Positions 8,085-64,000 of a stretch of 64,000 nt of DNA are shown here, in pieces. The notes beneath the pieces were generated by a model that was given only the letters and a program-made list of their open reading frames with translations, was not told where the DNA came from and made no database searches. The translations under genes were made by a program, and so were the position numbers. Numbering within the stretch: the stretch's first letter is position 1; each line of letters opens with the position of its first letter. Source of the stretch: Candidatus Dojkabacteria bacterium (GTDB lineage: Bacteria > Patescibacteriota > Dojkabacteria > B142 > JAFGFJ01); assembly GCA_016931155.1 (NCBI GenBank), contig JAFGFJ010000006.1, forward strand, positions 314,896 to 378,895. The letters run 5' to 3'.

Positions 8085-8609
8085 ATGAAAGCTTTGAAAT
8101 TAGTGCCCTATTTGGTACTTGTTTCTCTCATATCAGTAGGAGTGTACTTACTGATAGGAATAACAAATCAGGAGAAATTGCAAAGTTATTCTGACTTTAT
8201 TGAAACAAGTAGTGGCAAAGTACTTGAAGGGATAAACAAACAGAGTGAACAGATAAACAGAATTGGAAATATTTCGGATATTGAAGAAGGAGTAATAACG
8301 GATAATGAGGATATTTCAAGTAAGTTTAAGACTTTACTTGAAGCAGAAAAAAAAGCCTGGCAGGAATTAAAAAAGCCTGAAGGGTCTAAGGAAACTCAGA
8401 AACAAATGGAAGAGTTTTTTAAGGGTGCAGAAGAAAGCAATAAGCAGTTTGATGAGGCAATGATGGAAATAAAAATACTGAAAAAAGAAGATGAGCTTCT
8501 AAGTACAATTAAGGGCTACAATGAGAAAGTAACAAAATTTGCAGAAACATACGAAGAGCTTATTGAAAACTTAAATAATTATATTGATGAAAGTAACTTT
8601 ATACGATAA
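8085..8609 (+). CDS. Hypothetical N-terminally membrane-anchored helical protein inserted between rplC and rplD
   Basis: A 174-codon open frame in an AT-rich genome. One N-terminal TM helix (LVPYLVLVSLISVGVYLLIGI) followed by a K/E-rich helical region. It starts 2 nt after the rplC stop and overlaps the rplD start by 26 nt. No family recognised. Confidence 0.75.
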   Translation: MKALKLVPYLVLVSLISVGVYLLIGITNQEKLQSYSDFIETSSGKVLEGINKQSEQINRIGNISDIEEGVITDNEDISSKFKTLLEAEKKAWQELKKPEGSKETQKQMEEFFKGAEESNKQFDEAMMEIKILKKEDELLSTIKGYNEKVTKFAETYEELIENLNNYIDESNFIR

Positions 8610-13094: not shown

Positions 13095-13474
13095 TTCAAT
13101 CACTGACTAGACTAAAAGTTGCAGACAATAGTGGAGCCAAAGAAATAATGGTCATTCAAGTACAGGGCGGCAAAAAGGGTGGTGGCTATCAAAGGTTTGG
13201 TACAGTTGGAGAAATCGTGAGTGCTACTGTCAAAAAGGCACAGCCAAACAGTGGGGTGAGCAAAGGAGAGGTTGTACATGCGGTAATCATAAGGGTTGCA
13301 AAGGAAATAAAAAGAATAGATGGGTCTTATTTGAAGTTTGATGACAATGCAGCAGTTCTTATTGATAAAAAGAGTGGAGATCTTAAAGGTACAAGAATTT
13401 TTGGTCCAGTTGCAAGGGAGTTGAAAGAAAAAGGGTTTAATAAAATTGTTAGTTTAGCACCAGAAGTACTCTAA
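13091..13474 (+). CDS. rplN: 50S ribosomal protein L14
   Basis: [18 protein letters not shown]...[10 protein letters not shown]. Confidence 0.97.
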
Positions 13475-13785
13475 TGAAACTAAAAAAGGGAGATACAGTA
13501 AAGGTATTATCAGGTAAGTATCGAGGGAAAACGGGAGACATCCTGAAGATTTTTCTCGCAAAGAATACTGCGATTGTTGAGAAAGTGAATATAGTAAAAA
13601 AACATAAAAAGAAATCAGCTAATGAAAAAGAACCTGGCGGAATAATTGAAGTTGAGGCTCCGGTTCATATTTCGAACCTTATGCTTCAATGTAAAAATTG
13701 TTTGAAATTTACCAGGGTAGGATTTAGAAACGATGAAAAAGGAAAAAAAGTGAGATATTGCAAAAAATGCGATAAGACAATATAA
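13474..13785 (+). CDS. rplX: 50S ribosomal protein L24 (form containing CxxC...CxxC)
   Basis: KKGDTVKVLSGKYRGKTG KOW motif. The C-terminal half carries CKNC...CKKC. Confidence 0.94.
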   Translation: MKLKKGDTVKVLSGKYRGKTGDILKIFLAKNTAIVEKVNIVKKHKKKSANEKEPGGIIEVEAPVHISNLMLQCKNCLKFTRVGFRNDEKGKKVRYCKKCDKTI

Positions 13786-25399: not shown

Positions 25400-26095
25400 A
25401 TGAAAAAAATTACGGTTATTATATTCGCTGGAATTGTCCTTCTAGGGCTTGCTGTTTGGTCACCATGGAACAGGCTGGATTTCTCTTGGCAAAGACTTCT
25501 GGGAATTGAAAAGCCGGAAGGTATGGCAGGGCTTACAGTCTATTCACTTGGGGGGAATATGGAGGTAAAAATAGATGGAGAGTTGAAGGGAGAAGTAAAT
25601 CTTGCCAATTCTCCTCTTGAAATACACGATGTTGTTCCTGGTGAGCATAAAATTGAGTTAATTAGAAAAGGTTCACAGGATAACATTTATGCCGAGTATT
25701 TTAAAAATTTAAATTTTGAGGGTAACATAAATTCAATACTAAGTTATGAGCTTGGACCAACAGAAGAGTATAGTTCGGGCTATGTATTTTATGCTGTATC
25801 CAAAGGGAATTATGATGCTCTTGCTAGTTTGTCTGTGGTATCAAGACCTGAGCAGGCAAAGATCTTTCTAGATGGAATAGATGTGGGAAATGCTCCTTTA
25901 AGAGATGTAAAAATTTCTCTCAATCAATTACATAGGCTCAGGTTTGAGAAGGAGGGATTTGAATCACTTGAATTTGAAATTTTACCAAAGGAACAGGCAG
26001 ATCGAGATAAGCTTAAAGATTATAGTCTGGCAGTTGAGGCTCGACTGTTTAAGCTTCCAATAAATATAGTAGAGGAAGTATCAAATGAGAAATGA
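25400..26095 (+). CDS. Membrane-anchored PEGA-domain protein
   Basis: N-terminal TM helix. One clear PEGA repeat (VVSRPEQAKIFLDGIDVGNAPLRDVKI) and an earlier PEGA-like repeat (MEVKIDGELKGEVNLANSPLEI). Confidence 0.75.
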   Translation: MKKITVIIFAGIVLLGLAVWSPWNRLDFSWQRLLGIEKPEGMAGLTVYSLGGNMEVKIDGELKGEVNLANSPLEIHDVVPGEHKIELIRKGSQDNIYAEYFKNLNFEGNINSILSYELGPTEEYSSGYVFYAVSKGNYDALASLSVVSRPEQAKIFLDGIDVGNAPLRDVKISLNQLHRLRFEKEGFESLEFEILPKEQADRDKLKDYSLAVEARLFKLPINIVEEVSNEK

Positions 26096-29000
26096 AGCTA
26101 ATAAGCTAAAAAGTACGAGTAAATACCCAACCTCAATAATTGTTAAGGGTGTTGATACCATTGGTGTAGAGCTTGCAGGTTCACTTATTGAACAGGGGGG
26201 GTATGTAATTATGATAGACACCTACAATGAGGAATCTTTCGGGAAAATAAAACATCTGTTGGAAAAAGATCTGTTTACATTTGTTGATTTTTCAGCTCTT
26301 TCTCATCTGGAAGATGATTTGAGGAGATTGGATTATGTTTTTTTTCTGGGACATCAGGAGACTGACATCGAAAATGAAATTTCTACTCAAGAATTTCTCG
26401 AAGTATCAAATTACTTGAATGCGATTCTTGACCTTTCAACTAAATTTGAAGCTAAATTCTTATTAACAAATTCGATAAGAGCACATAGGAGACTGATAGG
26501 AGAGCAGGACGTTCATCTCAATTTTGATCTAGAAAAGACTAAAAAACACACGGTATATTCAGAAGTTGAAATTCAAAGATATGCAGAAAGTTTGGTGATG
26601 GAGTACTACGAGAAGGTTTCTTTGAATGTAAGAATTTTGAGAATGGGAGAAGTAATTGGTGAGGCTGTTGAGTTTAAAGAAAAGACTCCTCTTGGAAAGC
26701 TTATATTTGATGCAATATCAGGAAATGACCTAGAGATAACTGGTGATGGTCTTGATGAAGAGTATTATGTTCATTATCTTGATGCTGTTTACGGATTATT
26801 GAAGGGTGAATTTACTCCAAATACTAAGGGGAAGATTTTTTCGTTGGCAAATCAAGAGCCGGTTACTACATTATCTTTAGCGTATAAGGTTCAGGAATTA
26901 GAGCCAAAGGCTGGAGAAATAAAATTTGTAGAAAAAAAAGGTCCACTGTCACTCAAACTATACAAGCCAGCTGAAAACCTGGCAGTTATCGGCTGGAGGC
27001 CAAAAGTATCTTTTGACAGAGCCCTGTCACAGTCTATTGAACAAGCATATAACCACTTTAGTATCGAATCTTCTAGTCAGGTGGAAGATGTAAGGGATGA
27101 AAAAAAGAATGATGTGCTTTCCAAAAAACTTAAAAACTTCTTTTTTATCTCAGACAATAACGGAGAAAAGGAGGATACATATAAGCCAAAAGGAGAAGGC
27201 TATGGTGCTCTTTCGAGACTTATTGCAGAAAGAAAATCTCAGGAAATGGGAAGAAAAGGTAGCATTGTTCTGGCAAATGACAAACTAAGAGAAAAGGTCA
27301 AGGGTCAAAATCAGAAACCTGCTATTCAAAGATTGGGTACTAAAGCAAATAAGTTTTATGACAGAATTAAGGTTCAGTTTAATTTCCTTACTAGATTGAC
27401 TCTTAGTGAATTTGCTCTCTATTTGTTTCTTGTAATGATTTTGGCAGTGGTATATTTCGGAGTAGTATCTCCATTACTTAGTCTTGGTAAAGATGTGTAT
27501 TTTGGGAACAGAAATCTTGAAGAAGCAAAAAATAGATTTATTAGTAATGACATAATTGGTGCTAGGGAATCTGCCAAGAGTTCTCTCAATAACTTTGATG
27601 CTGCAGAGAAAACACTAAACAGATTTGAAGCATTTTTTAATCTTGTTTCCCAGAAAGAAGTATTCATTTCAGGGACTACTCTCCTGAGAGGAGCAAAAAT
27701 GTACTCTGAAGGTCTTGAACAATCATTCTCAGCTGTCTCTCCAGCGTACGAGTATTTCGAGAAGTTTGAAGATAATGTCTATTACAGACCGAATGACGGG
27801 AATCTTCTTGTTTCTGAGTCCAGTGCCGATTATTCAGAGTATCTTCAGAAGATGTCAGGAATGGAGATAGTAGCAGATGATGGGATCAGCAAAATAGTAT
27901 CAGCAACAGCTCTTATGTCAACTGCAAGAAAGAACTATTTACCTAAAACAGTAATAGAAAAAATAAATTCTATTGTAAATAATATTGATGAGACTGAGGC
28001 TGAGCTTCAAAGTGCAAAAAAAACGATTAGATATTTACCTGATCTACTGGGAGGAGATGGCCCAAAATCTTACATTATTATTCTCCAGGATAACTCAAGA
28101 TATAACCCTTCAGGAGGCAAAATCAATTCATATGCTTTCTTAACATTTGAAAAAGGTGGTTTAAAATCTATTAAGGTTGAAAATGCATCCAGCCTAAACC
28201 TGTCATTTGATAGGTTGAATCCAAAAACACTTGACCAGATCAATCTGATTTCGTTTCAGAATCTAAAAGTAGAGGACGTAACTCTCAGTGATTTTCAGCT
28301 CATAAATGATTTTGATCTGTTTAGCAGTGAAATTATTCCTTACCTTGAAAATTATTTTGAGAGGGATATTGATGGCGCCATATTTTTAAATATTAACAGT
28401 CTTGAAAAATTAATTGAATTGTATGGCGGAATTGAAGTCGAGCAAATTGAATTTGACGGGAAAAATCTTCTGATGAATGTTGATCTGGTTCTAAGAGACA
28501 ATAGGGAGGAAAATAGAAGAACAGAGATTATTACTCAGGTATTTGCGCTTGTGCTTCAGAAAATATTCACTTCAACAGGAGAAAAAACGCTGGAACTTGC
28601 TTCTCTTTCAAATGTTCAGCTGGAAGTAAAGGATATGATGCTTCAGTTCGAGGGTGAATATTATCAGGAGCAGATTGAAACAAATAATTGGAATGGGAGG
28701 TTTAACAACAACTCAGATTTTATTAAGATTGCAGTGGTTTCAAAGGCAAGGGAATTTTCTCAAACAAAATATCCTAACTTAAATATTGATATAAATGATA
28801 GGTTGAAGTCTGACTTAACAACTGTTAAACAAGTTACAATTGAACCTAAAAGTCTTGAAGATCTTGATTATGTGACTGTATGCCTTCCTGCTGGAGCTAC
28901 AGAATTAAATTTTGGTGAAATTAATCCTTTACTGTACAACCAGAATTTTAGTGCTGGAAATGAGTGTGTGAGTATAAAATTTGGTCAAATAAGCAGGGCT

Positions 29001-29234
29001 GTGATATCATACAAGACCCCAGCTTTTGAAAGTGTAAGGGGCAATAGTTACAATTACAACGTAAGTATCCAAAATACTCCTGGACTCAATCTGATTTATG
29101 ATTATGAGTTGGAATTTGATCCGGGTTTGTACCCTCTTGAGTATGACGATAGAGGATTCCTCCAAAGAGATAAGCTGATATATGCAGGTACTCTTGATGG
29201 AAATTTAATTTTGAATTTAAAATTCGGAAGATGA
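26085..29234 (+). CDS. Fusion protein: degenerate SDR/epimerase-like domain + TM helix + DUF4012 domain
   Basis: The N-terminal ~330 aa have a Rossmann/epimerase-like layout, but the glycine motif reads GVDTIG and YxxxK reads YSEVE. TM helix LYLFLVMILAVVYFGVVSPLL. The C-terminal region has the DUF4012-type block LLGGDGPKSYIIILQDNSRYNPSGGKINSYAF. Confidence 0.75.
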   Translation: MRNEANKLKSTSKYPTSIIVKGVDTIGVELAGSLIEQGGYVIMIDTYNEESFGKIKHLLEKDLFTFVDFSALSHLEDDLRRLDYVFFLGHQETDIENEISTQEFLEVSNYLNAILDLSTKFEAKFLLTNSIRAHRRLIGEQDVHLNFDLEKTKKHTVYSEVEIQRYAESLVMEYYEKVSLNVRILRMGEVIGEAVEFKEKTPLGKLIFDAISGNDLEITGDGLDEEYYVHYLDAVYGLLKGEFTPNTKGKIFSLANQEPVTTLSLAYKVQELEPKAGEIKFVEKKGPLSLKLYKPAENLAVIGWRPKVSFDRALSQSIEQAYNHFSIESSSQVEDVRDEKKNDVLSKKLKNFFFISDNNGEKEDTYKPKGEGYGALSRLIAERKSQEMGRKGSIVLANDKLREKVKGQNQKPAIQRLGTKANKFYDRIKVQFNFLTRLTLSEFALYLFLVMILAVVYFGVVSPLLSLGKDVYFGNRNLEEAKNRFISNDIIGARESAKSSLNNFDAAEKTLNRFEAFFNLVSQKEVFISGTTLLRGAKMYSEGLEQSFSAVSPAYEYFEKFEDNVYYRPNDGNLLVSESSADYSEYLQKMSGMEIVADDGISKIVSATALMSTARKNYLPKTVIEKINSIVNNIDETEAELQSAKKTIRYLPDLLGGDGPKSYIIILQDNSRYNPSGGKINSYAFLTFEKGGLKSIKVENASSLNLSFDRLNPKTLDQINLISFQNLKVEDVTLSDFQLINDFDLFSSEIIPYLENYFERDIDGAIFLNINSLEKLIELYGGIEVEQIEFDGKNLLMNVDLVLRDNREENRRTEIITQVFALVLQKIFTSTGEKTLELASLSNVQLEVKDMMLQFEGEYYQEQIETNNWNGRFNNNSDFIKIAVVSKAREFSQTKYPNLNIDINDRLKSDLTTVKQVTIEPKSLEDLDYVTVCLPAGATELNFGEINPLLYNQNFSAGNECVSIKFGQISRAVISYKTPAFESVRGNSYNYNVSIQNTPGLNLIYDYELEFDPGLYPLEYDDRGFLQRDKLIYAGTLDGNLILNLKFGR

Positions 29235-29695
29235 AACATAAGACTGTAATAACGAAAGAAGGTTTAAAGGATTTGAAAAATGAGCTTGATACCAGGAAGG
29301 ATAAGTTGAAAGAGATTGCTGATAAAATTGATGAGGCACGTCAGCAGGGAGACCTTTCTGAGAATGCTGCTTATACTACGGCTCTTTCAGAGAAAGAAAT
29401 GAATGAGGCGAAAATTAAGGAACTGGAAGATAAAATAAGTGGCTCGATAGTAGTTGAAGCTGATCCTTTAAATCCAGAAGTTGAACTTGGCGAGAAGGTT
29501 CTGGTGCGGCGGAGTTCTGATAACAAAAGGTTAACATATGAAATTGTTGGGATTGAAGAATCCAATCCGAGTGAAGGGAAAATATCTATAGGCTCTCCTA
29601 TTGGCAAGGCTTTGGCACATAAGAAGAAGGGAGATAAAGTAAAAGTTAAACTGCCATCTGGAGAGGAGGAGTTTTTAATTGAGGAAATTGCATAA
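29231..29695 (+). CDS. greA: Transcription elongation factor GreA
   Basis: ITKEGLKDLKNEL...QGDLSENAAYTTA...SIGSPIGKALAHKKKGD. ATGA overlap with the preceding gene. Confidence 0.93.
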   Translation: MKHKTVITKEGLKDLKNELDTRKDKLKEIADKIDEARQQGDLSENAAYTTALSEKEMNEAKIKELEDKISGSIVVEADPLNPEVELGEKVLVRRSSDNKRLTYEIVGIEESNPSEGKISIGSPIGKALAHKKKGDKVKVKLPSGEEEFLIEEIA

Positions 29696-29715: not shown

Positions 29716-30981
29716 ATGGAAAGACATTCAGTGCCCCAAAATATTATGGATGTCGAGTTCAAGCTTTTTGGAAGCCTGACCGTAAGACAGTTCGCTAACC
29801 TTGCAGGATCTATTGTCGTTGCGGTTATTTTATATTTTTTTAATATTCCCGGAATTATCAAATGGCCAGCAATCGTCGGTTTTGTTTTCTTGGGCATAAG
29901 TTTGGCACTGGTTAAGATAAATGGTCAAACATTTGGTACTTGGCTTGGCAATTTTCTGGCTTCTATGTTTAGTTCCCAGAGGAAAATATGGAAGAAAGAT
30001 CCGAAAGTTCCTGAGATACTTACAAAGACTTACCGTCCACGAGTAAGTAATGAACAGCTTGTTTCTGCGAAGAAAAAAGAGTTACCTCCTTTTCTACGTG
30101 AGGATATAATTCAATCTACAAACGTAGTAGATGAAGAGGAGGAAGAGCGGCTAAAGAAATTAGAAAAATACATTCTTGGTGGTACCTCTTCAACGATAAG
30201 TGAGCAATTAATTTCAGACGAAGAAAAAGCACAACGACCGGTAATAATTGATCCTTCAGATCAAAATCTTGCTGGCACAATGAATACGGCAAATGAGGAT
30301 AATTATTCTATAAATCAGTCGGACGAATTCGCAGTAATTGGAAAGAAGATGGCTAATCAGAGAGAGCGACCGATAAGCTCAAGACTTGTGCATAAGAACC
30401 TTGCGGAAAACATAGGAATTGCTGTAAGTGAAGATACTAAAGAGTCCGGTTTGGGCAAGGAAAAAGAAAAAAAGTCAGAAATAGGTTATCTTTCTGAGAA
30501 ACCTGTTAATGATATGAACAGAGGATTAGATGTGAAAAGGAGTTCTTCCGACGAATTGATAGAGGCTAATAAAATACTGCAGGAAAGGATACAGGAACTT
30601 ACAGAAAAAGCGAAAAAATCTCCTGATGACTCTCAGATAGCTCAAAAACTTGCAGAGATGGAAAAACGTCTGGTGGAAATTCAGTCGGGAGGTTCGTTCG
30701 CTAATGAAAAAATAGTATCTCAAAAACCAAATGTTATTAGTGGTATAGTAACTGATAAAGAAAATAAATTACTTCCTGATGTTAGGGTGTTGATTAAGGA
30801 CAGAAGGGGTTTTTTGGTTAGATCACTGATTACTGATAAGCAAGGTTACTTTGTTACGACAACTTCACTTCCTGACGGCGATTATTTAGTTGAATTTGAA
30901 AGCGATAGACATCCTTTTGACCAGTATAAAGTTAACCTGAACGGGTCTTTGAAAGATACGTATAAATTTACTGCCAGATGA
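29716..30981 (+). CDS. PrgI/VirB3-like membrane protein fused to a CarboxypepD_reg-like beta-sandwich domain
   Basis: The N-terminus (SVPQNIMDVEFKLFGSLTVRQFANL plus two TM helices) resembles the PrgI family. Next comes an acidic/coiled linker, and the C-terminus (ISGIVTDKENKLLPDVRVLIKD...TDKQGYF...DGDYLVEF) resembles a carboxypeptidase-regulatory-like fold. Confidence 0.65.
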   Translation: MERHSVPQNIMDVEFKLFGSLTVRQFANLAGSIVVAVILYFFNIPGIIKWPAIVGFVFLGISLALVKINGQTFGTWLGNFLASMFSSQRKIWKKDPKVPEILTKTYRPRVSNEQLVSAKKKELPPFLREDIIQSTNVVDEEEEERLKKLEKYILGGTSSTISEQLISDEEKAQRPVIIDPSDQNLAGTMNTANEDNYSINQSDEFAVIGKKMANQRERPISSRLVHKNLAENIGIAVSEDTKESGLGKEKEKKSEIGYLSEKPVNDMNRGLDVKRSSSDELIEANKILQERIQELTEKAKKSPDDSQIAQKLAEMEKRLVEIQSGGSFANEKIVSQKPNVISGIVTDKENKLLPDVRVLIKDRRGFLVRSLITDKQGYFVTTTSLPDGDYLVEFESDRHPFDQYKVNLNGSLKDTYKFTAR

Positions 30982-31000
30982 TTTATCTTATTAGTTAATA

Positions 31001-31684
31001 ATGGCGTTTTTAGGAAGAAAAGAAACAACAACTCAGGAACATCTTGATATTGAGGATGTCAGAGATGATCTTGTTGTGTTAAAAAATGGTAACGTTTCTC
31101 TTGTTATGGAGACGACTTCTTTGAACTTTGATCTTCTTTCGGAAGAGGAACAGGATATACGAATTCTTGCCTTTGCAGGGCTTATGAACTCATTGAATTT
31201 CCCTGTACAGATAGTTGTTAGAACAGAAAGAACAGACGTAACTGATTATGTAGATAAGCTAAAGATCTATAAGGAAAAACAGATTTCGTTGGCCTTAAAA
31301 AGACAAATAGAGATTTACATGCAATTTATTAAGAATCTTACTGTGAACACCGAGGTTCTTGATAAAAGATTCTTTGTTGTTATACCAGGAATAATATCAA
31401 GTATACAAAGAACTAGTGCTGTGAGACAGATCTTCGGTAAACCAGTAAAAATTAAAAATATCGAGGAGGTGCTTGAAAAAGCCAAATTACTTCTTTATCC
31501 AAAACGTGATCATCTGCTGAAGCAGTTTCAAAAAATGGGGATAATTGCAGAGCAACTAAAAACTGATGATTTAATACGTTTGTATTACGGTATTTATCAA
31601 CCGGATACTCCTGGAATTAAGAAATTAATTTTGAAAAAACAGGATTTTTCTACTGGGATTGTAGAAACTTTAAAAGAAGAATAA
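31001..31684 (+). CDS. Hypothetical soluble protein, possibly a stand-alone VirB4 N-terminal-domain-like partner
   Basis: 227-aa ORF ending 4 nt before the VirB4-like gene. Its pattern (LDIEDVRDDLVVLKNGNVSLVMETTSLNFDLLSEEEQD...LNSLNFPVQIVV) recalls the N-domain of VirB4/TraC ATPases, but it has no Walker motifs. The functional call is inference. Confidence 0.6.
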   Translation: MAFLGRKETTTQEHLDIEDVRDDLVVLKNGNVSLVMETTSLNFDLLSEEEQDIRILAFAGLMNSLNFPVQIVVRTERTDVTDYVDKLKIYKEKQISLALKRQIEIYMQFIKNLTVNTEVLDKRFFVVIPGIISSIQRTSAVRQIFGKPVKIKNIEEVLEKAKLLLYPKRDHLLKQFQKMGIIAEQLKTDDLIRLYYGIYQPDTPGIKKLILKKQDFSTGIVETLKEE

Positions 31685-31688
31685 CAAT

Positions 31689-33635
31689 ATGTGGATATTT
31701 GGAAAAAGCAAAAAAGAAAAGGAAAAAGAGAAGGAACAGACAAGTCAGTCAGAGGATCTTGAAGAGAAGGCAATTGAAAAATTCGCTGAGGGATTGATTG
31801 ATGTAAAAGATCTGATAGCTCCGTCAGCGATGGAGGTGGATTTTAACGATGTTCTTGTAGGAAATAAGTACTTTAGAACTTTCCTTGCTACTGGATTTCC
31901 AAGCCATGTCGGACCAAATTGGCTTTCTCCACTTATCAATTTTGACTTTCCTGTAGATATAAGCACGTTTTATTATCCTGTGGATAGTTCAATGATAATG
32001 CAAAGACTCAAACGAAAGATTGGAGAAATGGAGGCAACAATCAGTCTTGATCTTGAAGCAGGAAAAGTGGTTGATCCATATGTTAAGGTTGCACTTGAAG
32101 ATGCAAAGAATTTACAGGAACAAATAGCAAAAGGTACAGAGAAATTTTTTCACTTTGCTCTTTATGTAACTATTCGAGCAGGCAGTATCAGGGAGCTTGA
32201 AAAAATCTCGAAGAATCTTATTTCAACAATGTCTTCTATTAGTGTGATTCTAAAGGTGGCTACTTTGCAGCAGGAACAAGGTTTTCAGAGTGTTGTACCT
32301 GTAGGAATAGACAAGATCTATATGACCAGAAATATGGATACGACCTCTTTGGCGACCACATTCCCATTCGTTAGCTCAGAGCTTACTATGGATACTGGTA
32401 TTTTGTACGGAATAAATAAACACAATAGAAGTCTTGTGATTTTTGACAGGTTTGAACTTGAAAATGCTAATGCAGTTGTTTTTGCAACTTCCGGGGCGGG
32501 AAAAAGTTATATGGTAAAGCTTGAGGCTATGAGAAGTCTTATGTTCGGGACTGAAATACTGATAATTGATCCCGAAAGAGAATATGAGAAGCTAACGAAA
32601 ACAATTGGAGGAGAATACGTATCGTTTTCGCAAGATGGCGCGCAAAAATTGAATCCATTTGAGCTTTCAGGAATTTATGACAAAGATGAAGACGAGCTAA
32701 GAATGAAAATTCTATCACTTCACGGCCTTATGAGGATTATGATGGGTGGAGATTTTTCTCCGGAAGAATCTGCAATACTTGATAGGGCACTTATTTTGAC
32801 GTATAAAGAAAAAGGCATTACGGTTGATCCTGTCACACACAAAAAAGAACCACCTCTTCTTGAGGATTTATATAAGATTCTCCAGGCAATGGCAGAGCCT
32901 CAAGCTCATAATCTTGCGACAAGACTTGAGAGGTTTGTAAGAGGAAGTGCAGCTGGTATTTTTGACAGAAAATCAAATATTGAGATTAAGAATACATTTA
33001 CTGTTTTTAGTATTCGAGAGTTGAGTGATGACCTAAGGCCTATAGCAATGTATATGATGCTTGATTTTATTTGGACAAGAGTGAAAAGACTTCGAAAGAA
33101 AAGACTTCTAATAGTGGATGAGGCATGGTGGATGATGCAGTATCCAGATGCAGCAAAATTTATCCACTCAATGGCAAAAAGAGCCAGAAAGTACGGTCTT
33201 GGGCTTACTACAATTACTCAAGATGTTGAGGACTTTTTGAGTACGGATTACGGGAAAGCTGTTGTTACAAATTCATCAATACAAATATTAATGAAGCAAA
33301 GTCCTGTAGCTATAGATAAGATTCAGAAGATATTCTATTTGTCTCAAGGTGAGAAGAACTATCTACTTTCAGCAGGTATTGGGGAAGGTCTATTCTTTGC
33401 CGGATCAAATCATGTGGCAATTCAGGTAATTGCGAGTGAAAATGAGCATAATCTAATAACTACATCTTATAAAGATATGGAGAAAGAGGAGAAGAAAAAA
33501 GCGGCATTGGCAGAAGAAGCTGTAAAAAATGCCGGAATTGGTATTGCAGATATTCCTGAAAATACAAACCAGCAAGTTTCCCCTACTGATAATATTAATT
33601 CCTATACTGGTAATACTTCTTCCAATGCGGTATAA
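31689..33635 (+). CDS. VirB4/TrsE-like type IV secretion ATPase
   Basis: N-domain (YFRTFLATGFPSHVGPNWLSPLINF), Walker A ATSGAGKSYMVK, Walker B RLLIVDEAWWMM, and a TTITQDVEDF block. 648 aa. Confidence 0.85.
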   Translation: MWIFGKSKKEKEKEKEQTSQSEDLEEKAIEKFAEGLIDVKDLIAPSAMEVDFNDVLVGNKYFRTFLATGFPSHVGPNWLSPLINFDFPVDISTFYYPVDSSMIMQRLKRKIGEMEATISLDLEAGKVVDPYVKVALEDAKNLQEQIAKGTEKFFHFALYVTIRAGSIRELEKISKNLISTMSSISVILKVATLQQEQGFQSVVPVGIDKIYMTRNMDTTSLATTFPFVSSELTMDTGILYGINKHNRSLVIFDRFELENANAVVFATSGAGKSYMVKLEAMRSLMFGTEILIIDPEREYEKLTKTIGGEYVSFSQDGAQKLNPFELSGIYDKDEDELRMKILSLHGLMRIMMGGDFSPEESAILDRALILTYKEKGITVDPVTHKKEPPLLEDLYKILQAMAEPQAHNLATRLERFVRGSAAGIFDRKSNIEIKNTFTVFSIRELSDDLRPIAMYMMLDFIWTRVKRLRKKRLLIVDEAWWMMQYPDAAKFIHSMAKRARKYGLGLTTITQDVEDFLSTDYGKAVVTNSSIQILMKQSPVAIDKIQKIFYLSQGEKNYLLSAGIGEGLFFAGSNHVAIQVIASENEHNLITTSYKDMEKEEKKKAALAEEAVKNAGIGIADIPENTNQQVSPTDNINSYTGNTSSNAV

Positions 33636-33643
33636 ATAAAAAG

Positions 33644-34204
33644 ATGTTTCCACTAGATATTTTTACAAAACAATTCAACCTGAGTGGGCTAGTACTTATA
33701 GCCTCTGTTGCTATTTTTTCTTTGGCAGTAATTATTCTTTTGGTGAATGTTGTTATATTAAACAGGAAGCTAAAAAAAGCTACTACACCGACGTATGGTT
33801 TTGCAGGAAAGCCAATATATCCCATTATTGCAACATTGCTAATATCTGTATCTATACCTCTAGCTGTATATTCTTTATCTCAGGAGACTACTTTTGAACA
33901 AAAAGCAGAAGAAAATGTGATTCTACAGAGTAGTCATTATGTGGTATCAAGAGATGGGGAGAATTTACGGCTTGAGTTTAATGTTGTTCCATATGTAGAT
34001 GGGGTAGCTTGGGGAGAAAAGTCGTTTGATATTTTCTGGTCATTTAAGGGAAAAACATCCAAAACTAGCTATGAGTTTAATAAATCTGCGATTAATCCCA
34101 GTAAAATGACAATTACTTTGCCAAAAGGTGAGTATGATCTTACTATTCTTGTTACTTATGAGAATAGATCTCAGAGGTTAGAACAAAAGCTTGTTCTAAA
34201 ATAA
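33644..34204 (+). CDS. Hypothetical two-TM membrane protein with a beta-rich C-terminal domain (last gene of the VirB4 module)
   Basis: TM helices LVLIASVAIFSLAVIILLVNVVIL and IYPIIATLLISVSIPLAVYSL. It starts 8 nt after the ATPase stop. No family recognised. Confidence 0.7.
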   Translation: MFPLDIFTKQFNLSGLVLIASVAIFSLAVIILLVNVVILNRKLKKATTPTYGFAGKPIYPIIATLLISVSIPLAVYSLSQETTFEQKAEENVILQSSHYVVSRDGENLRLEFNVVPYVDGVAWGEKSFDIFWSFKGKTSKTSYEFNKSAINPSKMTITLPKGEYDLTILVTYENRSQRLEQKLVLK

Positions 34205-34227: not shown

Positions 34228-34233
34228 TATTTC

Positions 34234-34626
34234 GGTCTAGTCAGAACGGTCGCTAAGCGTGAGCTTAGAGGAAAGTCCGAACTCCTCTTGGCACAATAGT
34301 CAGGACAAGGTACCTTGGAGACAAGGCAGGGAGTGATCTCTGGGATTAGAGCAACAGAAAGTAAGGAGCCTGCGAATTGCAGGCGATCTTGAAAGGGTGC
34401 CTCCGGGTTTTTCTGGGGGGCGTACATGAAATTTCATGTATGACGTGTAAGAGACCACCGGTCACGATAGTAATATCGAGATGCTGGTAATCCCTATCGG
34501 GAGCAAGATCAAAGTGTAGATCGCAAAGTGTTTGTTCTTTTGATTAATCAGAACAAATACTGCTAGAGAAATGACCGTCATTCTGGTGTTGCCAGAAAGA
34601 ACAGAATTCGGCTTATTGACTAGACC
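34234..34626 (+). ncRNA. rnpB: RNase P RNA (bacterial type)
   Basis: Universally conserved GAGGAAAGTCCG at 34268-34279 and ACAGAATTCGGCTTAT at 34601-34616. P1 pairs GGTCTAGTCA (5' end) with TGACTAGACC (3' end). T6 follows at 34629-34634. The track ORF 34227..34427(-) is a shadow ORF. Confidence 0.92.
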
Positions 34627-34734
34627 ATTTTTTCAACCACTTCAGGAGTATTTCCATTTGGGTGCATAATACTTCCTGTATAGAAACCATTATTTCTTGA
34701 AAATTTCAATTTACAGTGGGAACACATAGATACA

Positions 34735-54239: not shown

Positions 54240-54315
54240 ATGAGTAGCTATCTCCGAAGCACTTCAAGTCTCTGTGCATGAGTAGCTCTTCCCGCAGCAC
54301 TTCAAATTCCTGTCG
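54240..54315. repeat. Imperfect 38-nt tandem duplication spanning the stop codon of the 424-aa gene
   Basis: 54240-54277 (atgagtagctatctccgaagcacttcaagtctctgtgc) against 54278-54315 (atgagtagctcttcccgcagcacttcaaattcctgtcg) is 28/38 identical, and 24/28 over the first 28 nt. Confidence 0.8.
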
Positions 54316-55538
54316 TAAGTAGACGGGTCACCGTTCTTTACGTATTTTAAGACCTTTCCGCAGATGTCACATCTCACCGGGTCGGGTCTGTCAGGGGTTG
54401 GTTGAGGTTCAAACCCCGGATTCAATATCGAGTTTACTCTTCCGAATGTGCTGAACTTTTCCGATATACCGCAGGCGCTCATCACATAACCTTCTTGTCT
54501 CATAAGTCTGGCTTGAGCATATCTATCCATTTTTTGAAAATCTGAGAAACCTCCATCTTGATCGTAATTAATCCCTGTTTCTAGCTTCATTACATCATGT
54601 ATATATTTTCTAAATCCGAACTGCAGGACTGCCATTGTTTCATTGATGAAGGAAAGTTCTTTAGAAATATTTTCCCCTTTATTCAATTTTGCGGCCGTCG
54701 CCGTAATCAATGTTCTAAATTCCTCCCTGACTCTTTCCCAAACAAACGTCTTTGCATAAGCCTCAATTAATCTAATTTTCATTTCTTCGAGACCTTTTGT
54801 TCTTTGTTCTATAAAATCGGTTATGATTCTGAGTTTGTTGTCATCAAAGAAGCCTGATGATGCCATTATGCTTAAATCTGAAAGATTATTGCTGTCTGTA
54901 TTAATTGCCAATTCATTCAGTAGTTCCTCATAATCAAGAGTCGAAGTTGCGGGTAGCCATTTTTGTATAACTTTCTCGGTACCATTTTCATTTATAAATA
55001 AAAAGATGGTGTCGTTCCCCAGATAACCTCTTTTTTTTGCTTCTTCGGTAAGTGGCGGGCTTGGGCTGAATTCTACAAAATTTCTTTTATCTCCCATCTG
55101 TCTTGCTCTTCTGAGTTTTTCATAATTGCTCAGATTTATTGTGTTTCTTAAGATTTCAAATTCAGGAATTTGCCCGCTCGCATTATTTATTGCTTCTCTA
55201 TAGATTTCGTCAAGTGTTCTGTTTCCTGTTGCGAGCTTCCACGGTAAATTGCTCTTATCCCAAGGGAGGCTGTATTCATATATTGCAGTAGTTTCTGCGA
55301 TGGGATGCTCAACGATCTGGGTGTATATGTCGGTAAGGCTTTCTGTCAATGCAATGTTCAACAATGCCTCCCTTTCCTCTCCTCCAGCAGATTGGATAGC
55401 TTTTAGAGCCTGAAGTACATAGTTTATTGAGTTTGAGTATCTGTTTGAATACTGCGCCCTGATAGAATCCATACTTAAATCTGCTTTATTGATCGCAAAT
55501 CTCGACGGTTGTATTTCCTGTATGGCTGTTTCGCTCAT
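54264..55538 (-). CDS. Hypothetical 424-aa protein with a C-terminal Cys cluster (zinc-ribbon-like)
   Basis: Long ORF with no family recognised. The C-terminus reads RCDICGKVLKYVKNGDPSTYDRNLKCCGKSYSC. Confidence 0.75.
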   Translation of the reverse strand: MSETAIQEIQPSRFAINKADLSMDSIRAQYSNRYSNSINYVLQALKAIQSAGGEEREALLNIALTESLTDIYTQIVEHPIAETTAIYEYSLPWDKSNLPWKLATGNRTLDEIYREAINNASGQIPEFEILRNTINLSNYEKLRRARQMGDKRNFVEFSPSPPLTEEAKKRGYLGNDTIFLFINENGTEKVIQKWLPATSTLDYEELLNELAINTDSNNLSDLSIMASSGFFDDNKLRIITDFIEQRTKGLEEMKIRLIEAYAKTFVWERVREEFRTLITATAAKLNKGENISKELSFINETMAVLQFGFRKYIHDVMKLETGINYDQDGGFSDFQKMDRYAQARLMRQEGYVMSACGISEKFSTFGRVNSILNPGFEPQPTPDRPDPVRCDICGKVLKYVKNGDPSTYDRNLKCCGKSYSCTET

Positions 55539-56149
55539 TTCATTTCAGAAACGAGCAGTGTTGAAGAATTAATTTTCATGGCTTTCTGCTCGGAAAGATA
55601 AAATAATCTTGGCTGGTTTTCTGGCTTTTCCAGTGATGGAATTACAGTTGCGGCACAGCAGCGGTATTTCACCGCTTTTCCCATTTAATCCCGAAAAGAG
55701 AACCTGAAATATACTAGAGTAAAAATTATAATTTTGCAAGAAGTGTAGGTCTGATGTATTTGATGTACAACTTCAAGACCTATGTAGCAACTGAGACTCT
55801 ACGGGCTGTACAGGTTCATGAACATATGCAACAGCCATAGTAGAATACGTTGATGTTTCAAATTATTAATGATTCAAACAAAACGGTTGTTGTATAACGA
55901 GTTTAATCTTTAATATGTTTCATCACACGATAGAGAAGGCGAGTAAAATCAGCTTATTTTTTTCATTAACTGTAGAGACTCTTACAGAGAGCCAAGGATA
56001 AACTAGATGCTTGTTATGTATTATATGTAAGACAAGCAAACTCTCAATGAAGGAAGTAGTAGAGACCACGGCTAAGTTTTGCTCATCATTATTGTTGATC
56101 TTTTGCCAAATGAATTGTACTCTGTATTAGTCAGATTCCTGCCCTAATT

Positions 56150-62942: not shown

Positions 62943-63153
62943 ATTGGCTTCGGTATAGTTACGGGTTATCTGATTCTATTTATAAATAAGCCAAAAGTCA
63001 ACACAAGCGTGTGGGAAAACAATGATATTTGCAGGTGTAGTTTTGGAGACTTCTCGCAAATGTGCGTATTGTGTGATAAAAAATCCTTTCCAAATATTTT
63101 TTACTAGAAATATTAGTATTAGATACTATCAGACAAATCATATTCAAGCCCTA

Positions 63154-63182
63154 TTGCCTATATATTAGTTATAGAGTATAAT
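63154..63182 (+). promoter_or_regulatory. Candidate sigma70-like promoter for the terminal partial ORF
   Basis: TTGCCT (63154-63159), 17-nt spacer, TATAAT (63177-63182). The ATG at 63199 follows. Confidence 0.4.
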
Positions 63183-63198
63183 TTTTGGGCAAACATTT

Positions 63199-64000
63199 AT
63201 GATGCAAATGCCAGATATACAAGAAAATATAGAAAATGAACAAGCTGGATTATTTGATCCAAGTTTTGCATACGAGGATCTGAGACTGCTGGAATATTTT
63301 TCTACGCCTCAACAGGTACTTTCGGATGAGGAAGCAGATAAATATATTGACTTAATAAATACAGTTTTTCAACCCGACTTGGAAGTCAATCGTTCTCACG
63401 CCTTAGGATATAAAGTAATGCTTGGTATGGTGGGTGTCGGGGGTGATTTTGCAGCGGGTCTTGAAGAAATCTCTGCTGAGGAAGATAGACTGCAATATGT
63501 GATAATGATGTCTCGCAGGGATAAGTATGTAAATTATGTAAGTCCATTATACACAAAAGGATATAGTGCTTTAGCGACAAATGATCCTTCTCGAATAAAA
63601 GATTACTCAAAATGGAATTTTAACAACCAGCAGGAAGCGTATGAATATTTTAGTAAGTACATTGAATATGCTAACAGTAATGTTGATTTCATCAAATTTC
63701 TTGGATATATTCTTTATTTTTTGGAACGGAGGGAATCTATTGAGACAGGAATTGATGACAATTCAACTGAGGGGCTAATTCAAATTACATCTGAGAATGA
63801 CTATCTGCATAAAAGTGCGAGGATAGGAATATTTAATTTCTTTATATTTAATCAGATGTATCCACTTGATGATGACAAGAGAAAAACGGTTTTAGAGAGT
63901 CTTGGAATACCTGCGGAGAAGGTTCCAATATTAAACTTGATGGATGATGACCTTGTCAAGACCCTTTGGGAAGAAGATGCGAAAAGCATTGAGTGGGCAC
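63199..64000 (+). CDS. Hypothetical protein, 5' partial view (runs off the window end; not in the ORF track)
   Basis: Hand translation from the ATG at 63199 (MMQMPDIQENIENEQAGLFDPSFAYEDLRLLEYF...KTLWEEDAKSIEWA) stays open for 267 codons to position 64000. No family recognised. Confidence 0.65.
   Translation, partial: MMQMPDIQENIENEQAGLFDPSFAYEDLRLLEYFSTPQQVLSDEEADKYIDLINTVFQPDLEVNRSHALGYKVMLGMVGVGGDFAAGLEEISAEEDRLQYVIMMSRRDKYVNYVSPLYTKGYSALATNDPSRIKDYSKWNFNNQQEAYEYFSKYIEYANSNVDFIKFLGYILYFLERRESIETGIDDNSTEGLIQITSENDYLHKSARIGIFNFFIFNQMYPLDDDKRKTVLESLGIPAEKVPILNLMDDDLVKTLWEEDAKSIEWA

Follow-up and report, generated by a model that had tools for sequence, protein, structure and literature searches.

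A Dojkabacteria variant of the chromosomal Patescibacteria type IV secretion system: a probable assignment for a VirB4 locus with a PrgI-beta-sandwich fusion

A 64,000-nucleotide stretch of the genome of a Candidatus Dojkabacteria bacterium (contig JAFGFJ010000006.1, positions 314,896 to 378,895; hereafter, the window) contains, at positions 29716 to 34204, four co-directional genes separated by intergenic gaps of 19, 4, and 8 nt, the products of which we denote P1 to P4. We consider it probable (about 0.8) that this locus represents, in Dojkabacteria (WS6), the chromosomal, non-conjugative type IV secretion system (T4SS) of the Patescibacteria clade, derived from monoderm conjugation machinery of the MPF_FATA type. 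Judging from the sequences, the set comprises three known parts, PrgI, TrsD, and VirB4, and one lineage-specific gene; it represents a published system in a class-specific form rather than a new machine. The first-pass annotation of the window had placed these four genes between greA and rnpB, with coordinates that proved exact, and had recognized a PrgI/VirB3-like protein fused to a CarboxypepD_reg-like sandwich (P1), a VirB4-type rather than FtsK/HerA-type ATPase (P3), and a protein with two transmembrane (TM) helices and a beta-rich ectodomain (P4), all of which were borne out.

In a recent survey (Quiñonero-Coronel et al. 2025, PMC12102498), a Patescibacteria clade of 2,425 VirB4 proteins falls within MPF_FATA, and the most common partners of these proteins are TrsD (2,272 homologues) and VirB3/PrgI (1,649). 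These T4SSs are chromosomal, relaxases are almost absent, and a repurposing of the systems, possibly to import from hosts, has been proposed. Dojkabacteria are represented in the survey dataset as VirB4-positive and are named in the conclusions of the preprint; the main text of the paper and its supplements, as stored, hold no Dojkabacteria-specific detail. T4SS genes have been found to be indispensable for epibiotic growth in the Saccharibacterium S. epibionticum (Wang et al. 2023, PMC10633639), a result restated in a 2025 review (PMC12857230). The earlier view that the parts list and function of such a gene set are not established therefore has to be abandoned: the relaxase-less VirB4/TrsD/PrgI system has been cataloged in more than 2,400 genomes and is essential in a Saccharibacterium.

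Motor and membrane anchor

P3 (648 aa; 31689 to 33635, plus strand) is a VirB4 ATPase that lacks the ~180 initial positions of the full-length protein. It matched the NCBIfam model NF045971 (VirB4 CD1110 family) at 392.1 bits, above the cut-off of 325, over model positions 178 to 734 of 752, and its only relative in the PDB was the Thermoanaerobacter VirB4 (4AG5; E = 8.6e-47, residues 237 to 590). The Walker A (ATSGAGKS) and Walker B (LLIVDE) motifs are both intact. Assignment to CedB of the Ced DNA import system was rejected given the score of 46 bits against NF041017 (cut-off 700); no specific search for CedA-like neighbors was made.

P2 (227 aa; 31001 to 31684, plus strand), initially left in an unknown family, is TrsD-like and corresponds to a separately encoded VirB4 N-terminal domain. 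The protein matched the NCBIfam TrsD/TraD model (NF041427; E = 4.6e-6) and the N-terminus of the VirB4_plasma model (positions 103 to 233; E = 2.5e-6). In the family compiled from related loci, all 46 members matched the VirB4 N-terminus and 45 of the 46 matched TrsD (E ≤ 1e-3). The homologues carry the precomputed Pfam label TraC-like (PF26593), and searches of PDB sequences returned nothing, whether with the single sequence or with the profile. Thus, P2 is a small homologue of the VirB4 N-terminus that is encoded directly upstream of a short VirB4, across the 4-nt gap. We take P2 and P3 to represent a single VirB4 encoded in two parts because together they tile full-length VirB4 end to end: on the 797-aa VirB4 of Clostridium botulinum plasmid pCDC3875, the P2-family profile aligned with residues 21 to 191 and P3 with residues 206 to 795. 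The VirB4 N-terminal domain, which contacts VirB3 and the membrane, spans ~180 model positions that are absent from P3 and matched by P2, and would be supplied in trans.

P1 (421 aa; 29716 to 30981, plus strand) combines a PrgI/VirB3-family anchor, a charged linker, and a beta-sandwich, an architecture on which Pfam, AlphaFold2 (AF2), and Foldseek agree. The PrgI domain (residues 1 to 95; 29716 to 30000) consists of two TM helices and an amphipathic helix, and residues 6 to 90 matched the Pfam PrgI family (PF12666) at 41.2 bits, passing the gathering cut-off of 27. The C-terminal sandwich (residues 340 to 421; 30733 to 30978) matched CarboxypepD_reg over residues 341 to 398 at 30.9 bits, slightly under the cut-off of 32.3. 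The AF2 model, built with 59 homologues, contains a TM hairpin (residues 23 to 41 and 46 to 65) with a predicted local distance difference test (pLDDT) score of 89 to 97 and a beta-sandwich (residues 340 to 420) with a pLDDT of 96 to 98, and the charged linker between them is mostly disordered. Foldseek matched the sandwich with CnaB2, carboxypeptidase D, and transthyretin-like domains (E = 3.5e-5; template-modeling score TMt ~0.7). The PF12666 plus PF13620 architecture recurs in most of the 120 homologue clusters listed, and every lineage named among these clusters is Dojkabacteria/WS6 or Patescibacteria. The N-terminal tail is conserved as MERHxVPQNIMDVEFKLFGSLTVRQF, with invariant or near-invariant alignment columns in residues 1 to 26.

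The PrgI homologues of other classes within the candidate phyla radiation (CPR) consist of the PrgI part alone, at ~140 aa and without an extension, whereas Dojkabacteria PrgI proteins range from 256 to 684 aa. Eleven of the 12 long Dojkabacteria homologues retain the C-terminal sandwich, the exception being a frameshifted copy (locus L001), and the linker varies in length among these 12, giving proteins of 269 to 532 aa. The sandwich is predicted to lie on the same side of the membrane as the N-terminus, that is, in the cytoplasm rather than at the surface, because a third hydrophobic segment is absent from 119 of the 120 listed homologues, the net charge is +6 after the second TM helix compared with -1 for the N-terminal tail, and fusions of VirB3 with VirB4 are known. 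In some systems, VirB3 is fused to the N-terminus of the cytoplasmic VirB4 (PMC12102498). The suggestion of a "surface machine" in the first-pass annotation survives, therefore, in its non-conjugative, VirB4-powered part, and not for the P1 sandwich with its predicted cytoplasmic position. The fusion of PrgI with a beta-sandwich goes unmentioned in the main text of PMC12102498, and this class-wide feature is apparently undescribed.

Conservation, genomic context, and the absent channel and pilin genes

The closest VirB4 relatives listed share 65 to 92% identity with P3 and belong to Dojkabacteria/WS6 wherever a lineage is named. The identity of P3 is 66 to 92% to Dojkabacteria, 42 to 49% to other CPR classes, and at most 37% to any plasmid VirB4, a distribution that appears to group P3 with the Patescibacteria VirB4s and not with those of plasmids or integrative and conjugative elements (ICEs). 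When genomes were scanned with VirB4, 48 loci were obtained, distributed over many CPR lineages. A VirB4 open reading frame (ORF) is present in 46 loci, and in most of these PrgI, TrsD, and VirB4 were all detected, in that order.

A metagenome scan seeded with the P4 family found the block rpsI-PEGA-DUF4012-greA-PrgI-TrsD-VirB4-P4 in all independent Dojkabacteria contigs of sufficient length, and two further look-ups, one of which is the complete chromosome CP129475.1, contained the same block. The extended layout of that chromosome also matches the window, with the ribosomal operon upstream and a Zn-peptidase, SecA, and a sortase downstream. In nearly all Dojkabacteria loci that extend far enough, greA lies directly upstream of PrgI (the exception is again the frameshifted locus), and rnpB directly follows the P4 homologue in seven of the 10 Dojkabacteria loci tested. 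Over the same genome pairs, identity is 66 to 73% for VirB4, 49 to 59% for TrsD, 42 to 56% for the PrgI N-domain, 50 to 54% for RpsI, 38 to 47% for GreA, and 29 to 34% for P4. Because the identity of VirB4 exceeds that of RpsI, the VirB4 motor is under stronger constraint than ribosomal protein S9. These observations support the module being a vertically inherited core-genome feature of Dojkabacteria. The proposal of a domesticated, non-mobile module, made at the outset from the window, is in line with this synteny and with the strong conservation of VirB4.

In the window itself, the upstream neighbor greA (29231 to 29695, plus strand; Pfam GreA_GreB_N and GreA_GreB) ends 20 nt before P1, and the RNase P RNA gene rnpB (class A; 34233 to 34631, plus strand; RF00010, 134 bits) starts 28 nt after P4; both are context and not components of the machine. 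The guanine-cytosine content of the module (0.355 to 0.366) is like that of its surroundings. Ahead of greA lie a PEGA-domain protein (25400 to 26095, plus strand) and a 1049-aa protein with an epimerase-like N-terminal domain and a DUF4012 domain (26085 to 29234, plus strand), a pair that immediately precedes greA and the T4SS core in almost every Dojkabacteria locus reaching that far.

We surveyed the ORFs of the window, 27 of them by Pfam, with the remainder read as housekeeping genes from their translations. As had been claimed, no relaxase, VirD4 coupling protein, VirB6, hydrolase, or integrase was found among the ORFs surveyed in the 64 kb, which otherwise encode proteins of housekeeping or envelope function, plus a small number of unknowns. 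A search for flanking or attachment (att)-like repeats returned just short imperfect intragenic matches, and the sole tRNA gene of the window lies ~20 kb from the module. Hence, the hallmarks of MPF_FATA systems on ICEs and plasmids (relaxase, VirD4/TcpA, VirB6, hydrolase, integrase, and att sites) were not encountered within the 64 kb.

In most other CPR classes, the PrgI-TrsD-VirB4 trio is adjoined by a 600- to 1150-aa protein with six to 11 TM helices and by small proteins with two to three TM helices. We read these as VirB6-like and Mbov_0395-type pilin-like proteins, respectively, because an annotated locus of Pontibacillus identifies them. Such VirB6-like and VirB2-like genes next to virB4 are frequent, although not universal, in the Patescibacteria clade and were not met at the Dojkabacteria locus: profiles for the VirB6-like (fam3) and pilin-like (fam5) families found no member, whether in the 64 kb of the window or in 12 loci of Dojkabacteria taken with flanks of up to 10 kb on either side. 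A phmmer search of the window with the accessory genes of other classes likewise gave no relevant relative, the single match being a PPDK_N-like housekeeping gene. The absence of these genes from the flanks of the Dojkabacteria locus is apparently undescribed. Most likely, the VirB6-like and pilin-like genes are encoded elsewhere in the genome. The label "orphan" or "minimal" given to the module at first accordingly goes beyond what 64 kb can show, and the genes flanking the trio in other classes may lie elsewhere here.

Loci of the ABY1/Falkowbacteria type (L006 to L026, L040, and L045, by our own ORF calls) contain a further set of conserved, uncharacterized accessory genes around the trio. 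Downstream, the trio is followed by a ~205-aa protein with a single TM helix and usually by a ~450-aa ORF, which in one locus (L020) is RadA-like according to Pfam. Upstream are proteins of ~1000 aa (polytopic), ~340 aa, and ~500 aa that belong to no Pfam family.

Comparison with known systems places the Dojkabacteria locus close to the Patescibacteria-clade T4SSs, with which it shares a chromosomal, relaxase-less core of VirB4, TrsD, and PrgI/VirB3 in the same order and vertical inheritance within classes. The Dojkabacteria form adds to this core the PrgI linker and sandwich and the class-specific P4 after virB4. The locus of the Saccharibacterium Southlakia epibionticum (SEML1_0006-0019) lies in a dnaA/dnaN context and includes a VirB6-like gene, an array of VirB2-like pilin genes, a hydrolase, and VirD4, none of which is near the Dojkabacteria core, which lies in a context of the ribosomal super-operon, greA, and rnpB. 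The division of VirB4 into a small TrsD and an ATPase is shared with MPF_FATA systems of the pGO1/pSK41 type (TrsC/VirB3-like, TrsD, and TrsE/VirB4), but these are plasmid-borne and conjugative and include a relaxase, a type IV coupling protein, a hydrolase, and other Trs proteins, unlike the Dojkabacteria locus. TrsD has been described as a distant homologue of the VirB4 N-terminus that typifies the pGO1 subclass (PMC12102498). The VirB4 of C. botulinum pCDC3875, an example of the full-length CD1110-family proteins of Firmicutes conjugative plasmids, is one polypeptide with ~30% identity to P3 and shares its ATPase motifs; its gene belongs to a VirD4-VirB6-PrgI-x-VirB4-hydrolase operon of a MOBP-typed plasmid, whereas the Dojkabacteria locus is chromosomal.

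The closest non-CPR VirB4, with 37% identity, is encoded on a Bacillota megaplasmid, from Pontibacillus sp. ALD_SL1 (NZ_CP062975.1, 351.8 to 361.4 kb). There, a PrgI (116 aa), a TrsD-like protein (274 aa), and a short VirB4 (621 aa) are encoded in the same order and are recognized by CPR-derived profiles; the locus additionally encodes two pilin-like proteins of the Mbov_0395 family, a 779-aa VirB6-like protein, and a 1050-aa M23 peptidase. The Pontibacillus PrgI has no C-terminal extension, and the locus contains no P4. The megaplasmid is typed as "non-mobilizable," no relaxase is annotated near the cluster, and flagellar genes start ~5 kb downstream. This cluster could bear on the origin of the Patescibacteria system or on transfer in the reverse direction.

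The fourth gene and other features of the window

P4 (186 aa; 33644 to 34204, plus strand) is a two-TM protein with an FN3/Ig-like ectodomain that we regard as a candidate accessory subunit. It is identical to the NCBI hypothetical protein JW796_03255 from a Ca. Dojkabacteria metagenome-assembled genome. The AF2 model (pLDDT 89.6) consists of two TM helices and a seven-strand beta-sandwich, and the best-conserved part of the family is a cytoplasmic loop, at residues 41 to 60 of P4, with the invariant motif P[KR]YGF[LG]GKP. A word-indexed homology search returned P4 itself only, and relatives were found by an exhaustive search. A Pfam scan of 98 family members gave no consistent family, and the family profile had no significant match among PDB sequences. 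Comparison of P4 with VirB8, VirB9, and plasmid proteins detected no similarity, and a tblastn search against plasmids was empty. We rejected the possibility that P4 is a VirB8/PrgL-like protein, because it does not show the required organization of a bitopic protein with an NTF2-like extracytoplasmic domain. Homology to the single-TM protein of ~200 aa whose gene comes after virB4 in loci of the ABY1 type was rejected as well: the hhalign probability was 7 to 14% with the TM helix alone aligned, and a weak fam1 profile match seen for a single homologue of P4 (E = 1e-4, with a very small database) is likewise a TM-helix effect. The P4 family is apparently undescribed and confined to Dojkabacteria.

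Several other features of these contigs deserve mention. On one Dojkabacteria contig (L083), a 92-aa Kunitz_BPTI ORF, a domain unusual in bacteria, is located ~500 nt downstream of the P4 homologue (13433 to 13711). In the window, the presumed rplC and rplD genes of the ribosomal operon are separated by a 174-aa ORF (8085 to 8609, plus strand) that has a hydrophobic segment at its N-terminus and matches no Pfam family. A cobalamin riboswitch (55594 to 55722, minus strand; 60 bits) lies just upstream of a 424-aa ORF (54264 to 55538, minus strand) that has no Pfam family and looks B12-regulated, in a reduced CPR genome. Finally, neither strand of the ~1.06-kb region at the end of the window (62943 to 64000) contains a complete ORF of at least 90 aa, and no Rfam match reached E ≤ 0.1; the region looks non-coding, in a genome that is otherwise densely coding.

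Alternative explanations and the proposed role

Several observations run counter to parts of the interpretation favored here, namely, a Dojkabacteria form of the Patescibacteria-clade T4SS. P2 scored 26.6 bits against the TrsD model, compared with a curated cut-off of 200, and so fails as a member of NF041427; it is better described as a remote TrsD homologue outside that subfamily proper. The grouping of P3 with Patescibacteria VirB4s was judged by identity and not from a tree. Most structural neighbors of the P1 sandwich fold are extracellular, which is odd for a cytoplasmic domain, and the cytoplasmic placement is a prediction from homology-based topology and charge bias. A promoter and terminator scan of the region from 23 to 36.2 kb produced counts close to the shuffled expectation and is uninformative on operon structure. 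The inspection for channel and pilin genes covered 64 kb of this genome and 10 kb to either side in relatives. The other counterpoints concern P4, which shows no similarity to any known T4SS part and is unlinked from a detectable VirB4 ORF in two subclades that are nested within the P4 tree (L063, L064, and L072, and L070, L073, L076, and L079; at least one of these subclades is confirmed as Dojkabacteria), and whose adjacency to virB4, within a long syntenic run of housekeeping genes, says little by itself. In one of these subclades, P4 is next to FtsW-, FolD-, and ribonucleotide-reductase-like ORFs, and in the other, it is immediately upstream of a DHH/NrnA-like ORF, all labels being read from N-terminal sequences.

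The four-gene set of the first-pass annotation thus stands as far as the PrgI, TrsD, and VirB4 trio is concerned, with the membership of P4 uncertain; we give roughly even odds to P4 being a genuine subunit of the machine. The explanation that the core comprises three genes and that P4 is an unrelated envelope protein, located after virB4 by chance in a conserved housekeeping block, is a serious competitor that we rate at just under an even chance. It draws on the separation of P4 from VirB4 in two subclades, the lack of homology to known T4SS parts or to the post-virB4 gene of other classes, the identity of 29 to 34% across Dojkabacteria pairs, which is the rate of the neighboring envelope proteins, and the fact that greA and rnpB are equally close to the module yet clearly unrelated to the machine. 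Against it, all 22 locus-derived copies with a visible upstream neighbor outside these subclades lie directly downstream of virB4, at gaps of -1 to 16 nt; a best-conserved cytoplasmic loop suits docking to a conserved cytoplasmic partner; and in most other CPR classes the gene after virB4 likewise encodes a membrane protein that is bitopic or small.

The remaining alternatives concern the nature of the machine as a whole. A truly minimal, self-sufficient apparatus, in which VirB6-like and pilin genes have been lost genome-wide and the P1 sandwich has replaced coupling or receptor functions, would agree with the empty VirB6-like and pilin-like profile searches and with the PrgI fusion and P4 as class-specific innovations, and VirB6 has been reported as scarce or absent in some Patescibacteria classes (PMC12102498). 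We nevertheless consider it unlikely: the window amounts to ~10% of the genome, T4SS genes are dispersed in some genomes, with pilin genes away from virB4 in ~800 Patescibacteria assemblies (PMC12102498), and the VirB6-like and pilin-like families diverge fast, such that profile searches can miss members. The more elaborate scheme in which VirB3-TrsD-VirB4 and P4 form such an apparatus without VirB6 or pilins anywhere in the genome, with the sandwich as a receptor replacing the coupling protein and the P4 ectodomain as a link to the envelope or the host, seems to us a little less likely still. We know of no T4SS that functions without a VirB6-type channel subunit. Descent of VirB4, PrgI, and TrsD from monoderm conjugation systems, and a gene order resembling that of conjugative plasmids such as pCDC3875 (VirB6-PrgI-x-VirB4), might suggest a decayed ICE or plasmid remnant, but we reject this explanation as very improbable because mobility genes and att-like repeats are absent and synteny is conserved: each Dojkabacteria contig examined has this locus among the same core genes, the ORFs and motifs are unbroken, VirB4 surpasses a ribosomal protein in conservation, and there is no adjacent tRNA gene or compositional anomaly. 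The least credible possibility, with next to no weight, is that the ATPase is an FtsK/HerA- or phage terminase-type translocase unrelated to T4SS. The matches that favor it are the generic DUF87/HerA match of P3, at 36 bits only, and a match to PHROG 2666, "terminase large subunit" (E = 2.9e-22), which we interpret as generic P-loop similarity because the VirB4-specific matches are stronger; the VirB4 models, with NF045971 exceeding its curated cut-off, and 4AG5 dominate the searches, and PrgI and TrsD are T4SS-specific neighbors.

By analogy with VirB3 and VirB4 in solved T4SS structures, the PrgI hairpin of the Dojkabacteria T4SS would anchor a hexameric ATPase composed of TrsD and VirB4 to the cytoplasmic face of the membrane, and this motor could drive both the assembly of an apparatus that spans the envelope and transport through it. 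The sandwich, carried beside the ATPase on a ~240-residue flexible, charged linker, could, speculatively, recruit a partner or substrate. P4, a fast-evolving protein with its cytoplasmic-loop motif and FN3-like ectodomain, may connect the motor to the envelope. By analogy with the Saccharibacteria system, which is needed for epibiotic growth, the role is likely to be macromolecule exchange with a host cell rather than conjugation. The idea of host interaction raised at first sight of the locus is the same as the interpretation already published for the clade, that is, host-dependent macromolecule exchange (PMC12102498). A 2026 preprint also links VirB4 and possible T4SS pili to host macromolecule transfer.

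The T4SS of Patescibacteria is a leading candidate route by which ultra-small epibionts would obtain host material and is, to our knowledge, the only type of T4SS shown to be essential for the growth of its owner. What the Dojkabacteria locus adds at the class level is a PrgI with a leashed domain, a Dojkabacteria-only protein that usually follows virB4, and a motor encoded apart from VirB6-like and pilin-like genes. If those parts exist elsewhere in the genome, the locus would be a dispersed version of the published system; if Dojkabacteria genomes truly lack them, it would be the smallest VirB4-based machine known. A VirB4 that is more conserved than a ribosomal protein suggests that the machine is central to Dojkabacteria.

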